64,000 bases of DNA from Patescibacteria group bacterium. GTDB taxonomy: Bacteria > Patescibacteriota > Patescibacteriia > UBA1558 > GWA2-36-10. The notes under the pieces were generated by a model that did not search any database, was not told where the DNA came from, and saw only the letters and a list, made by a program, of their open reading frames with translations. The position numbers and the translations under genes are program-made. Position 1 is the stretch's first letter; each line of letters begins with the position of its first letter. This document shows positions 14,600 to 62,484 of the stretch, in pieces. The stretch is from the NCBI GenBank assembly GCA_041665545.1, contig JBAYIQ010000001.1, positions 67,495-131,494 of the forward strand, written 5' to 3'.

Positions 14600-14673
14600 T
14601 GGCTGCCGGACAGGGAGTCGAACCCCGATTACTAGGGCCAGAACCTAGCGTCCTACCATTAGACGATCCGGCA
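14600..14673 (-). tRNA. tRNA-Gln (anticodon CTG)
   Basis: Reverse complement folds as a canonical cloverleaf: acceptor TGCCGGA/TCCGGCA, D-loop AATGGTA, anticodon loop TTCTGGC, T-loop TTCGACT, encoded CCA. Confidence 0.8.
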
Positions 14674-34563: not shown

Positions 34564-35029
34564 TGTCTAAATAACCCTGTAAGCCGAATTCTGTCGAGGA
34601 TGATCATCTATCTAGGCCCATGATTGCTCATGGGCTCAAGCGGTTTACCCGCCCCTTGATTTCTCTCAGGGCCTATTTAACCTTTCACCGAGTAGAGTTT
34701 ACCTCTTTTGCTTTGTCACCAAAGTAACGTGTCAGCTCATTATCTGACAATTTCACCCTTACCCATTTGACTCAGCCTTGCGGCTTCGCTCAGGGAGGAA
34801 TATTTTCTGTTGTACTTGTCTTGACTCTTGAGTCACCTCTCAAGCCAGTTGACGTTATCAACTACCCGCCCCGCAAGCGGAGCCATTGGTGTTCGGACTT
34901 TCCTCCCTGAACCACTCACTCCGTTCGGGTATCAGGGCCGAAGCCCTTTTACATTATTACGGCGTGAGCCGTGTACCCGAGCAAAGCGAGTGGTTCACGG
35001 CGATCATCTGGGTTATTTAGACGATTATT
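34564..35029 (-). ncRNA. rnpB: RNase P RNA, bacterial type A
   Basis: On the minus strand: GGGAGGAAAGTCCGAACAC (P4 5' strand), ACAGAAAATA, GGGTAAGGGTGAAA, ACAGAATTCGGCTTACAGGG (P4 3' strand), and a P1 helix CGTCTAAATAACCC/GGGTTATTTAGACA. Confidence 0.85.
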
Positions 35030-59704: not shown

Positions 59705-59733
59705 TTGACAGAAATTTGATTATATGCTATACT
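59705..59733 (+). promoter_or_regulatory. Sigma70-like promoter (TTGACA-17-TATACT) driving leader elements A and B and the receiver gene
   Basis: TTGACAgaaatttgattatatgcTATACT. Confidence 0.45.
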
Positions 59734-59761
59734 CTTTTCATTGACAATTTAACAAACCTTT

Positions 59762-59866
59762 GAAGCAAGGAAGCATTATCTTTATTTGGACGCTTGGATA
59801 ATGTGGAGCTAGTAGCGTAACCGGCAACAATTTTTGGTTACGCTTCCTAATGGGAAGTGTTTTTTG
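59762..59866 (+). promoter_or_regulatory. Structured RNA leader A (riboswitch-like) ending in an intrinsic terminator
   Basis: Conserved blocks GAAGCAAGGA / TTTGGACGCTTGG / GGAGCTAGTAGCGTAACCGGCA. Alternative 8-bp hairpin GCGTAACC/GGTTACGC. Terminator CTTCC..GGAAG plus TTTTTT. Confidence 0.45.
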
Positions 59867-59900
59867 TTGAATGTACCTTTAAAAAATCACACAATCAATC

Positions 59901-60051
59901 GATGAGGCAAGGAATGATCGTCTGTATTTGGACGCTTGGTCCTCCCACTCCGCCATCTGGCGGATATGGACGGACGAGGACGATCAGGAGCTAGTAGCGT
60001 AACCGGCAATTTTTTTGGTTATTAGCTAAACACCTCATTCAGGTGTTTTTT
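59901..60051 (+). promoter_or_regulatory. Structured RNA leader B (paralog of A with an extended internal stem) ending in an intrinsic terminator
   Basis: Same three conserved blocks. 62-nt insertion forming CCGCCAUCUGGCGG and GGUCCUC/GAGGACG stems. Terminator CACCTcattcAGGTG plus TTTTTT, directly before the receiver gene RBS. Confidence 0.45.
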
Positions 60052-60083
60052 GTTACCTGGTGGCTAGCAAGGAGGAAAAGAAC

Positions 60084-60461
60084 ATGAGCACGATTTTTGT
60101 CTTGGACCAGAAGGAATCTGCCGAATCCCTGGCCATGGCACTCTGTCAGGAAGGACACGTGACTTACATAAGTTGCGACTACAAAAAGGCCTTAAGACAG
60201 ATCGCTGAACTGACCGCCGCCAAAGCAGGGCCAGATCTAGTGTTGGCTGAATTTCTGGAAACAGACGGGGCAGAACTTTGCAGGGAACTGCGGCGATACG
60301 GTCTGACCAGGAAAATCAAGGTTGTACTGATGAGTCGCGGTGGTCCGCACAGCAATATTGATTATTACCGCCGACTGGGAAAAAGCTACGGAGCAGATGA
60401 CTACTTACTCAAGTCAGACGACCTGCGAGCAATCGCTCGAAGCATCCAACACTTGATCTAG
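60084..60461 (+). CDS. Stand-alone receiver (REC) domain protein with the phospho-acceptor Asp replaced by Glu (pseudo-receiver)
   Basis: AAGGAGG RBS with an 8-nt spacer. CheY-like fold sequence: IFVLDQ, DLVLAEF (E at the phospho-site), conserved K in KVVLMS..., GADDYLLK. About 50% GC. Confidence 0.6.
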   Translation: MSTIFVLDQKESAESLAMALCQEGHVTYISCDYKKALRQIAELTAAKAGPDLVLAEFLETDGAELCRELRRYGLTRKIKVVLMSRGGPHSNIDYYRRLGKSYGADDYLLKSDDLRAIARSIQHLI

Positions 60462-60476
60462 ACAAGGAGGTGTCTC

Positions 60477-60527
60477 ATGGATCTGATCAGCGTCCTCATC
60501 CTCATCTCGGCCAAGTACGAGTGGTGA
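60477..60527 (+). CDS. 16-aa hydrophobic micro-ORF (MDLISVLILISAKYEW), translationally coupled to the receiver gene
   Basis: Strong AAGGAGG RBS 7 nt upstream, 12 nt after the receiver stop codon. Followed by hairpins and a terminator. Confidence 0.3.
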   Translation: MDLISVLILISAKYEW

Positions 60528-60596
60528 CTCCCCTCACCAAAGAAAGGTGGTGATAAAAAATTCGACAGTACAGATGATCACTGTCGATAATAACCT

Positions 60597-60640
60597 CGGG
60601 GTCAGACACACTCACTATCTGACCCCGAACAAAAAATCAT
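60597..60640 (+). terminator. Intrinsic terminator (perfect 9-bp stem CGGGGTCAG/CTGACCCCG plus A/T-rich run)
   Basis: Seen directly. Preceded by a second perfect 7-bp hairpin CGACAGT..ACTGTCG at 60563-60586. Confidence 0.55.
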
Positions 60641-60700
60641 TGATTTTCCGACTTGATTGTGCTACATTAAAAATATATAGAATATTCACAATTTAAATAA

Positions 60701-60824
60701 AGTGAGGCAATGACTGATTACTATCCATTTTGGACGCCAAATTGGTAATCAAGAGCTAGTGGCGTAACCGGCACTTTTATCAACTAAGCCACCCACCTCA
60801 CCAAACATTAATTGAGGTTTTTTT
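60701..60824 (+). promoter_or_regulatory. Structured RNA element C (third paralog of A and B) with an intrinsic terminator
   Basis: GAGGCAATGA / TTTGGACGCC / AGAGCTAGTGGCGTAACCGGCA blocks. Terminator CCTCA..TGAGG plus TTTTTTT. Confidence 0.45.
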
Positions 60825-60839
60825 ATGCCTAAATAAGCA

Positions 60840-60868
60840 TTGACAATTTAAAAAACATGGGTTATAAT
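60840..60868 (+). promoter_or_regulatory. Consensus sigma70 promoter (TTGACA-17-TATAAT) with a 230-nt AT-rich leader for the lipoprotein gene
   Basis: TTGACAatttaaaaaacatgggtTATAAT. Confidence 0.55.
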
Positions 60869-61103
60869 AACCAGTTAATTATTAATCATAAATTAGATAT
60901 TGCGCTAACCTTGAAATTTTATTTTTAGACTAGCGGAATATCTAAATAGGAAAGAACATTACAACTTGGGAAATCACACAATCACACCGACTCCACCAGT
61001 AGTTATGAAATAATCTTACCAAAACATTAAGGGAGGTGAGTAAAACTAGAATTCTCCTTCGGTTTCTGTAGATCGCCAAATCACAGATTACAGGAGGCAA
61101 GCG

Positions 61104-62174
61104 ATGAGATTCGTAAGCGTTCTGCTACTGGTTGTGGCTTCCTCGGCGCTTCTGCTGGGTGGCTGCGAACAGAGCCCCACCACTCCGGTGGAAAACCTCA
61201 GCCCCGGACAGGAGCACAATGTCTTCCTGTCTACCATGTATGCCAACTACGGCATCGAGCAGTACCACAATGTCGATACCGAACTGGCTATCAATCGTGC
61301 CAGCAAGGTGTTCGCCAAGCAGCTGAACCTGCCCGAAGCCGAAGTGCGACAGCAGATGGAGCAAGGAATCCGGGTCTTCAACGACCTGGAAGCTGCTGGG
61401 ATCATCGATTTCGACCATTTCAAGATCATCGATCCGTCGGGGTTTGCTGAATACATCAGCAACCTCGACCCCGCCACCACCCCCGAAGAACGGCGGATGG
61501 TTCGAGACTTGATCGGCGATCTTGTCGCCACTGGCGCCGACAAGTCCCGAAGCTACGACCAGGTGGTGGCCAAATGGAACCACCACTCCGTCACCCAGCG
61601 GCTCACCAGCTGCCTGGACGTACTGGCGGCCAGTGATGAGTTCTGGACGACGCCCGACGCAGACAAGAAGCAACCCTATACCGCTGGCGAGGTCCAGATG
61701 TGGGATACCGGCGGAGCTCTGGCGGGAGCTTGGCTCGGTGGTCCCCTCGGAAGCCTGCTCGTAGGAGGGCTCACCTCTTATCTGGCAGCCGAATACTGCT
61801 CGCTCTGCCCGCCGGACGAACCGCCGCCGCCACCGCCGCCCCCGCCGCCGCCACCGCCGTCACCGAACGGTTATGATCCGCCGCCCGTCGTCCTGTCCGG
61901 TTTCATCTCTTTTCCTCCTCGCCACCCCGCTGGCTGGGCGGTGGTGGTCATGCTGATCGTCTGTGTCACGGCCTGGCTGATATTGCACAAGCGATATCAG
62001 CTTGGTAAGTTCTGGGGTTTGGGCATGATCATGCTGATCGGCTCCTTGTCCCAGATCGCCGCCAGCAGCATCAGCCACACCAACAACAGCATGTCGATCT
62101 TGCTGTTGGTGATTTCCAGCGTGATCGGAATCTGGCTCATTCGTCGCAACACCCAACGGCGAGTGTTGAACTAG
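61104..62174 (+). CDS. GC-rich lipoprotein with a poly-proline linker and C-terminal TM helices
   Basis: AGGAGG RBS. Signal peptide with lipobox LLGGC. PPDEPPPPPPPPPPPPPSP tract. Two or three C-terminal hydrophobic helices. About 58% GC. Confidence 0.6.
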   Translation: MRFVSVLLLVVASSALLLGGCEQSPTTPVENLSPGQEHNVFLSTMYANYGIEQYHNVDTELAINRASKVFAKQLNLPEAEVRQQMEQGIRVFNDLEAAGIIDFDHFKIIDPSGFAEYISNLDPATTPEERRMVRDLIGDLVATGADKSRSYDQVVAKWNHHSVTQRLTSCLDVLAASDEFWTTPDADKKQPYTAGEVQMWDTGGALAGAWLGGPLGSLLVGGLTSYLAAEYCSLCPPDEPPPPPPPPPPPPPSPNGYDPPPVVLSGFISFPPRHPAGWAVVVMLIVCVTAWLILHKRYQLGKFWGLGMIMLIGSLSQIAASSISHTNNSMSILLLVISSVIGIWLIRRNTQRRVLN

Positions 62175-62199
62175 ACACCTCAAACAGAGACCACGCATA

Positions 62200-62247
62200 G
62201 GACCCCGCATCTGTTGCATTCACAATGCACTGCGGGGTCCTCTTTTT
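62200..62247 (+). terminator. Intrinsic terminator (9-bp stem GGACCCCGC/GCGGGGTCC plus TCTTTTT)
   Basis: Seen directly. Confidence 0.65.
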
Positions 62248-62410
62248 ATTGACTAAATGCTAAATATATACTATAATTTTTTTGTTTTTTATATTTATTC
62301 GGGGACCCGTCCGCCTCGGCTACGCCGCAGGCGTGCCGGGCGAGTCTACTATTCATAAGGACATAGTCATATATAAAACAAGTAGTATAATTTACATTAT
62401 TTTTAAACAT

Positions 62411-62484
62411 TCGGGGATCGTCTAATGGTAGGACAGCGGCCTTTGAAGCCGTGAATTGGGGTTCGAATCCCTGTCCCCGAGCCA
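62411..62484 (+). tRNA. tRNA-Gln (anticodon TTG)
   Basis: Cloverleaf: acceptor TCGGGGA/TCCCCGA, D-loop AATGGTA, anticodon loop CTTTGAA, T-loop TTCGAAT, CCA encoded. Confidence 0.8.

Follow-up and report, generated by a model that had tools for sequence, protein, structure and literature searches.

Receivers that lack the phosphorylatable aspartate make up about 4% of all receivers and glutamate is the commonest replacement, at 26%, as these figures are quoted in PMC12548384 (citing PMC4395418) and in PMC12632262. Glutamate often, although not always, mimics phospho-aspartate, and the means by which pseudo-receivers are turned on or off has been described as an unsettled matter (PMC12632262). 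For pseudo-receivers in general, control of abundance has been described, and there is a precedent for a Glu-type receiver placed under a c-di-GMP riboswitch (PMC12548384, PMC12632262).

By analogy, the closest precedent for the locus described here is CmrT of Clostridioides difficile, encoded in the cmrRST operon. In brief, CmrT carries an OmpR-type receiver with a glutamate, E53, at the acceptor position, is thought to be phosphorylation-independent and has been inferred to be constitutively active; a c-di-GMP riboswitch precedes the operon, and control of expression substitutes for control by phosphorylation (PMC12548384). CmrT has features of its own: it possesses an output domain that binds DNA, it is encoded together with a kinase and a canonical regulator, and its riboswitch is a single ON switch that is combined with an invertible element. 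In contrast, the locus in our window, by which we mean the whole 64-kb stretch of DNA that was analysed, encodes a receiver without an output domain, has no kinase or canonical partner in the locus, carries tandem riboswitches with predicted OFF logic and belongs to a Patescibacteria host.

Tandem c-di-GMP-II riboswitches are known from Paraclostridium and its relatives where, as in the window, complete riboswitches stand in series as twos or threes, each with an expression platform of its own. For these arrangements, 59 doublets and 9 triplets are on record and a steeper response is predicted (PMC9481103). They mostly precede genes for surface-anchor proteins of Firmicutes, whereas the gene behind the tandem in our window encodes a Patescibacteria pseudo-receiver. 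Unlike the Paraclostridium-type tandems, many of the aptamer copies here carry an extra hairpin in the P3 loop. Neither Glu-type receivers nor tandem c-di-GMP-II riboswitches are new in kind, and with CmrT the combination has a precedent as well. The pseudo-response regulators of plants (the APRR/PRR clock proteins) also carry Glu in place of the phospho-accepting Asp and are regulated by abundance and not by phosphotransfer. These proteins are eukaryotic and multidomain, and the likeness is one of features alone, from which we draw no evolutionary or mechanistic link.

The receiver gene and its acceptor site

The gene under study, at 60084-60461 on the + strand, encodes a stand-alone Glu-type pseudo-receiver of 125 aa (REC*), which carries the NCBI name 'hypothetical protein'. 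As read from the sequence, it starts at the ATG at 60084, 8 nt behind a Shine-Dalgarno sequence, AAGGAGG, at 60069-60075 (+) that is kept in the related loci L001-L003. A longer version starting at the GTG at 60060 is unconserved, and it was rejected because a 2-nt indel separates this GTG from the ATG in L001, a 94%-identical relative. Between the window and L001 the gene has 23 synonymous and 7 non-synonymous codon differences, which marks it as protein-coding and subject to purifying selection.

The G+C content of the receiver gene lies 4-18 points above that of its own locus in the window and in L001, L008, L010, L092 and L093, so that in the window, for instance, 0.505 compares with 0.386 and in L093 0.581 with 0.401. 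Recent horizontal transfer was rejected as a simple cause, since every ortholog is richer in G+C than its own locus. The excess is thus a persistent compositional anomaly and not the trace of a recent transfer in one lineage.

The Pfam model Response_reg (PF00072) matches the window protein with 25.6 bits (E=1.4e-5), below its gathering score of 30.2; across the family described below, 22 of the 23 members match it at E<0.01, the best at 9e-11. The closest solved structures in a phmmer search against PDB are the receivers of YycF, VicR and PhoB (E 1e-6 to 2e-5, with YycF at 1e-6), and the best partial matches in NCBIfam are YycF, PhoB and NblR. By itself, the sequence evidence for receiver identity is weak but consistent, and it suggests that the protein derives from OmpR/PhoB-type receivers. 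An AlphaFold (AF2) model built with 59 sequences reached a pLDDT of 91.7 and a pTM of 0.86 and was used instead of a single-sequence model with a pLDDT of 67.5. Its secondary structure elements follow in the order b1a1b2a2b3a3b4a4b5a5, the (beta-alpha)5 fold of receivers. The top Foldseek matches of this model are all receivers (prob 1.0, TM 0.72-0.77), led by YycF (2zwm_A, TM 0.76) with the PhoB and MicA receivers also at TM 0.76; rank 4 is the constitutively active PhoB mutant D10A/D53E (2jb9), which is also matched by sequence. The first-pass annotation had called the protein a single-domain, CheY-like receiver, and Pfam, phmmer against PDB, the AF2 model and Foldseek concur. It was likewise right that no output domain is present: the 125 aa are receiver throughout and end with alpha5, and the winged-helix DNA-binding model Trans_reg_C (PF00486) has no match in the window protein.

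The residue at the phospho-acceptor position is Glu56, encoded by GAA at 60249-60251. HMMER places it opposite D53 of YycF (PDLVLAE against PDLILLD), MAFFT places it opposite D57 of CheY, and in the AF2 model it closes beta3 (residues 52-56) at its C-terminal end, so that the substitution of Asp by Glu proposed at first pass is confirmed by all three. Ser84 at the end of beta4 occupies the T position and Lys110 at the end of beta5 the K position, the latter being the conserved Lys noticed before; Tyr107 lies at K-3. The stretch GADDYLLK, which had been assigned to the region of helix 5, is actually beta5. At T+1 the window protein has Arg and at K+1 Ser, where most family members have Pro. An acidic pocket had also been read from the N-terminal IFVLDQ. 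One Asp of it, Asp8, is there, and the claim fails for the rest: the DD pair of the window protein is Leu7-Asp8, a single-Asp site with no acidic pair. The beta3-alpha3 loop is two residues short and lacks the usual Pro at D+4. From the canonical set of features of a phosphorylatable receiver, the protein retains the Thr/Ser and the Lys and lacks both the Asp at the end of beta3 and the acidic DD pair for Mg2+. It is recognised as a receiver and is devoid of a catalytic residue needed for phosphotransfer, which is how a pseudo-receiver is defined (PMC12632262).

A family of Glu-type receivers in one syntenic neighbourhood

A word-indexed search of 5.8 billion proteins gave one close cluster only, and an exhaustive HMMER scan of 1.84 billion representatives gave that same cluster and generic receivers only. 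Among the weak single-domain matches three have the Glu, and two of these also have the two-residue deletion. A profile built from these sequences collected 22 clusters at 155-200 bits, with the next match at 67 bits. Judged by these sequence scores, the Glu-type receivers form a discrete, sharply bounded and previously unnamed family of 23 sequences, the 22 clusters and the window protein. A profile search of the genome contigs with the family alignment had only generic receivers, and no family members, among the matches listed.

Glu56 is invariant in 23/23 sequences, which answers the question raised at first pass of whether homologs conserve it, and the same holds for Gly24, Gly62, Leu65, Cys66 and Ala104. 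Ser84, Lys110 and Asp61 are nearly invariant. The DD positions are Tyr-Ala in most members ('IFIYAKEE'); the window protein and the sequence closest to it have retained Asp8. From the beta3-alpha3 loop two residues are usually missing. Loss of the DD pair and shortening of the loop both point to phosphorylation independence. The family resembles the aspartate-less receivers and pseudo-receivers described before (Maule 2015; Bourret 2025) in that its members are recognisable receivers without a phosphorylatable Asp, and it follows the trends reported for pseudo-receivers in having a non-acidic DD2 in most members, a lost Pro at D+4 and a bulky T+1 (PMC12632262). It differs from other pseudo-receivers in being restricted to one syntenic locus of Patescibacteria type, a taxonomy that was taken from NCBI protein names.

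Ala at DD2 together with Glu at the acceptor position, which occur naturally in most family members, is the combination found in PhoB D10A/D53E (2jb9). The PhoB mutant was engineered from a full transcription factor, whereas the window protein keeps Asp8 and the alpha4 face of the family is unconserved. Conservation in the family is highest in beta3, the loop following it (loop 3), alpha3 and alpha2 and lowest in alpha4, and the alpha4-beta5-alpha5 face, the surface of dimerisation in OmpR/PhoB, is the least conserved part of all. This face is unlikely to be a conserved functional surface because conservation concentrates in beta3, loop 3, alpha3 and alpha2. A PhoB-like 'active dimer' formed through alpha4-beta5-alpha5 was considered and receives no support from conservation.

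Every placed family member lies in one syntenic neighbourhood. The orthologs are 31-37% identical to the window protein, apart from that of L001 at 94%. The shared gene order runs acetate kinase, PTAC, PfkB, SpoU methylase and a 541-aa protein, followed by the optional YibE_F and Fur, and a ZIP transporter gene usually stands just before the receiver gene (it is absent in L092). The placed family members are orthologs in one bacterial lineage.

Downstream of the receiver gene, most relatives encode a helical ORF of 57-62 aa, a second small receiver and a lipoprotein of ~234 aa. At its acceptor site the second receiver has Asp in L008 and L010 and Glu in L093. Within the DNA available, all three genes are absent from the window genome and from L001. 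The 57-62-aa ORF and the lipoproteins have no match in Pfam, nor has the 356-aa ORF described below, and the 57-aa and 356-aa ORFs have none in NCBIfam. In one sequence, P0163 (181 aa), a family receiver is fused in frame with the 57-aa helical ORF. This fusion may be natural or may stem from an error of assembly or at a stop codon, and it constitutes weak Rosetta-stone evidence that the receiver and the 57-aa protein interact.

A kinase or full-length regulator was not seen in any locus examined. A motif scan of the 64-kb window gave no GGDEF, HD-GYP, histidine-kinase H-box or PilZ motifs and one trivial EAL-like string in an 83-aa ORF; motifs of diguanylate cyclases and phosphodiesterases are absent within the window. 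Diguanylate cyclase genes have been reported in genomes of Patescibacteria/candidate phyla radiation (PMC9938205).

Between the receiver gene and a tRNA, which in the window is tRNA-Gln(TTG) at 62411-62484, gene content differs among the window (60462-62484), L001, L008 and L092, and this stretch looks like a variable cargo region beside a tRNA. Just after the receiver gene, the window has a candidate micro-ORF of 16 aa, MDLISVLILISAKYEW, at 60477-60527 (+), with an AAGGAGG of its own at 60464-60470, 6 nt upstream. The micro-ORF is 96% identical to L001 with two differences, both synonymous, against 74% for the flanking spacer, and the region may either encode a hydrophobic micro-peptide or be conserved as an RNA element. 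The 57-aa ORF that occupies the same position in other relatives has no relation to it. In two hairpins, at 60562-60587 and 60595-60629, pairing of the stem has been preserved through several compensatory changes that distinguish the window from L001. Neither has a U tract on the + strand; the former reads as a terminator on the - strand, where no convergent gene is found. The 356-aa ORF at 61104-62174 (+) has ~60% G+C in a genome of 39% G+C, and its product combines a lipoprotein-type signal (LLGGC) with 13 consecutive prolines and with hydrophobic segments towards the C terminus. In its place L001 encodes an unrelated 246-aa protein and a 954-aa FlgD_ig/Por_Secre_tail protein. By eye the 356-aa ORF seemed akin to the riboswitch-associated lipoproteins of the metagenome loci, a kinship that was rejected after tblastn gave no significant similarity. 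Elsewhere in the window, a bacterial class A RNase P RNA (34564-34951, - strand, 173.7 bits) and a tRNA-Gln(CTG) (14600-14673, - strand) are ordinary housekeeping RNAs.

The riboswitch leader and its predicted direction

Two tandem structured RNA leaders had been noticed upstream of the gene at first pass and left unnamed; Rfam identifies both as c-di-GMP-II aptamers. The locus is more informative than it had then seemed, because these riboswitches have an evolutionarily conserved link to the pseudo-receiver family. Ahead of riboswitch 1 lies a promoter-like sequence, TTGACA-17-TATACT with a TG extension, at 59705-59733 (+), which matches 11/12 positions. This block is conserved in L001, and similar TTGACA/TATAGT blocks are present in L008, L010 and L093. 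Aptamer 1 at 59752-59835 (+) matches Rfam RF01786 with 67.7 bits (gathering score 53.5, E=5e-13) and is followed by expression platform 1 at 59836-59866 (+), which consists of a terminator hairpin at 59840-59860 and a U tract at 59861-59866. Aptamer 2 at 59896-60017 (+) has 47.3 bits (E=8e-9), below the gathering score, and ahead of the gene comes terminator 2 at 60028-60054 (+), with its stem at 60028-60048 and then a U tract.

In 6/6 loci (the window, L001, L008, L010, L092 and L093) one or two aptamers lie directly upstream of the receiver gene, one in L092 and two elsewhere. The cores UUGGACGC and GAGCUAGURGCGUAACCGGC do not vary among 12 aligned copies, and in the same 12 copies the P3 stem covaries, with both-side compensatory changes at 7/9 pairs. 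As read from the Rfam alignment, the loop ACGC can pair with the tail GCGU in place of the consensus GCAC/GUGC pseudoknot. Aptamer 2 has a hairpin of ~41 nt inserted in its P3 loop, with a compensatory change relative to L001. In many copies an extra hairpin of ~25-41 nt follows GGACGCUU in this loop (window 59940-59980 and the aptamers of L010 and L093), and it differs in sequence between lineages. The Rfam scores of the insert-bearing copies are below the gathering threshold because of this insert.

A third c-di-GMP-II aptamer at 60694-60782 (+; 49.4 bits, E=2e-9, below the gathering score) is conserved in L001. Its module, at 60650-60868 of the window, has its own promoter-like block upstream, a paralog of the one ahead of aptamer 1, and, after the aptamer, a terminator-like hairpin with a U tract at about 60796-60825. 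Straight after this hairpin comes a 12/12 consensus promoter at 60840-60868. Homology between this module and L001 extends as far as the -35 box and stops there. This riboswitch may control the downstream gene, or its transcript may be a short stand-alone RNA.

When JGI metagenome contigs were searched for exact copies of the 20-nt core, 61 loci were obtained. The genes behind the core encode Flp/Fap pilins, a family-2 glycosyltransferase, many signal-peptide proteins, homologs of the 57-aa ORF and short-loop receivers. Such a set of downstream genes is typical of c-di-GMP control and supports c-di-GMP as the predicted ligand. Flp/Fap pilin genes (PF04964) follow the core in L122, L126, L127, L134 and L149, and genes for GT2, PqqD-like and MpsC-like proteins follow it in L119, L118 and L129, respectively. 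In L104, L107, L111, L137, L141, L146, L148 and L154, stand-alone receivers of 136-172 aa are encoded directly behind single or tandem c-di-GMP-II aptamers. These receivers have a short beta3-alpha3 loop and most have an insertion after beta2; the acceptor residue is Asp in some and Glu in others. In L148 the riboswitches are followed first by a 69-aa helical ORF, then by a Glu-type receiver and last by a lipoprotein.

The direction in which the leader responds was read from its platforms. In riboswitch 1 the segment GGUUACGCU (59836-59844) is complementary to the tail of aptamer 1, AGCGUAACC, with which it would form an antiterminator, and the ACGCU within it also starts the 5' arm of terminator 1. 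Platform 1 copies the aptamer loop GACGCUU and competes with that loop for the tail. The unconstrained MFE fold of riboswitch 1 has the antiterminator, built with aptamer nucleotides, and no terminator in 5/6 loci (the window, L001, L008, L093 and, by a different pairing, L092); L010 keeps the terminator in the unconstrained fold too. When the aptamer is folded on its own, platform 1 forms the full terminator in every locus. In riboswitch 2 the 5' strand of the aptamer, GAUGAGG, is complementary to CCUCAUU in the 5' arm and loop of terminator 2, and the MFE fold contains the terminator in both states, with no discrimination between them. The second riboswitch of L010 and L093 has no U-tract terminator.

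The platform architecture of riboswitch 1 argues for a switch that is probably OFF, in which c-di-GMP would cause termination. If the riboswitches were instead ON switches, like those of cmrRST and pilA1 in C. difficile, the pseudo-receiver would be made at high c-di-GMP. The characterised cmrRST riboswitch does act positively upon binding of its ligand (PMC12548384), and the MFE folds of riboswitch 2 and of riboswitch 1 in L010 fail to separate the two states. However, the terminators lie wholly outside the aptamers and none overlaps an aptamer strand, and therefore ligand binding cannot directly block termination. Moreover, the complementary segments pair aptamer nucleotides with the 5' arm of the terminator, which is OFF logic, and we regard ON switches as rather unlikely.

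Proposed mechanism and significance

We suggest, with a probability of roughly 0.6, that the protein is a phosphorylation-independent pseudo-receiver whose abundance is set by c-di-GMP through the riboswitches and which acts through protein-protein contacts. Its phosphorylation independence we infer from the residues described above: with the acceptor Asp permanently replaced by Glu and a degenerate phosphotransfer apparatus, no kinase would switch the protein. Transcription would start at the sigma-70-type promoter and pass through a leader in which two complete c-di-GMP-II riboswitches follow one another, both equipped with an intrinsic terminator of their own. Once riboswitch 1 has bound its ligand, the tail AGCGU would be locked in the pseudoknot, the mimic GGUUACGCUUCC would be freed, the terminator would form and the gene would be off, and two such switches in series would make the response sharper and tighter. 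At low c-di-GMP the protein would be made, adopt a fixed conformation and act by protein-protein contacts. The likely partners in the relatives would be the co-transcribed helical protein of 57-62 aa and the second small receiver, and candidate contact surfaces are the conserved rim of the active site and the alpha2-alpha3 face. The invariant Glu and the retained Ser84, Tyr107 and Lys110 fit a fixed, possibly active-like conformation. Lacking an output domain, the protein can act only by binding to something, and since the riboswitch pair is the sole visible input in the locus DNA examined, abundance control by c-di-GMP is the simplest model.

Could the protein be a normal phosphorylatable receiver after all, with Asp8 or Asp61 accepting the phosphoryl group? 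The near invariance of Asp61 in the family would suit such a role. Yet no different Asp occupies the acceptor position: Asp61 aligns with the usual Asp before the Gly of alpha3 and is an ordinary helix-3 N-cap Asp before Gly62 (CheY D64-G65, YycF D60), Asp8 is Ala in most family members, and Glu56 ends beta3 in every alignment and in the AF2 model. The chance of this is very slight. Hardly more probable is that the protein is itself an effector that binds c-di-GMP, like VpsT or the Cle proteins, CheY-like effectors that bind c-di-GMP through an Arg-rich C-terminal extension. It does belong to a predicted c-di-GMP regulon and has an Arg-rich stretch in alpha3 (CRELRRYGLTRK), but it ends with alpha5, lacks both a W[FLM][TS]R motif and an Arg-rich extension at the C terminus, and gave no sign of ligand binding in any of the analyses made here.

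A rival that deserves more weight, though we still think it unlikely, is that the protein is an inert decoy or inhibitor, a look-alike that titrates a kinase, phosphatase or partner regulator and does not mimic the active state. Its conserved surface is made up of the active-site rim, beta3, loop 3, alpha3 and alpha2 and not of alpha4-beta5-alpha5, the relatives encode a second receiver with an acceptor Asp immediately downstream, and regulation by pseudo-receivers through protein-protein binding is documented (PMC12632262). Against titration stand the loci themselves, none of which shows a kinase or full-length regulator to be titrated, and the retention of Ser84, Tyr107 and Lys110, which a Glu would need to engage in order to mimic activation.

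Building on the preferred reading, a phosphorylation-independent pseudo-receiver controlled by abundance, we speculate more tentatively that the locus is a kinase-free signalling cassette in which riboswitch-gated synthesis of a Glu-locked receiver sets a low-c-di-GMP programme. This is a doubtful proposal at present. If true, the cassette of the relatives would add the 57-aa helical partner, fused to the receiver in one sequence, and the second short-loop receiver, and the programme may cover functions such as attachment, the cell surface or lipoproteins in a bacterium that is ultra-small and probably depends on a host.

The locus offers a clean natural case of a minimal Glu-type receiver of 125 aa whose sole visible input, a pair of c-di-GMP riboswitches, is conserved in orthologs down to ~31% identity. 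It also documents a predicted c-di-GMP riboswitch regulon in Patescibacteria. A full-text literature search gave no paper that combines c-di-GMP, riboswitch and Patescibacteria or candidate phyla radiation. The locus therefore provides concrete and testable RNA and protein parts for second-messenger signalling in reduced genomes.
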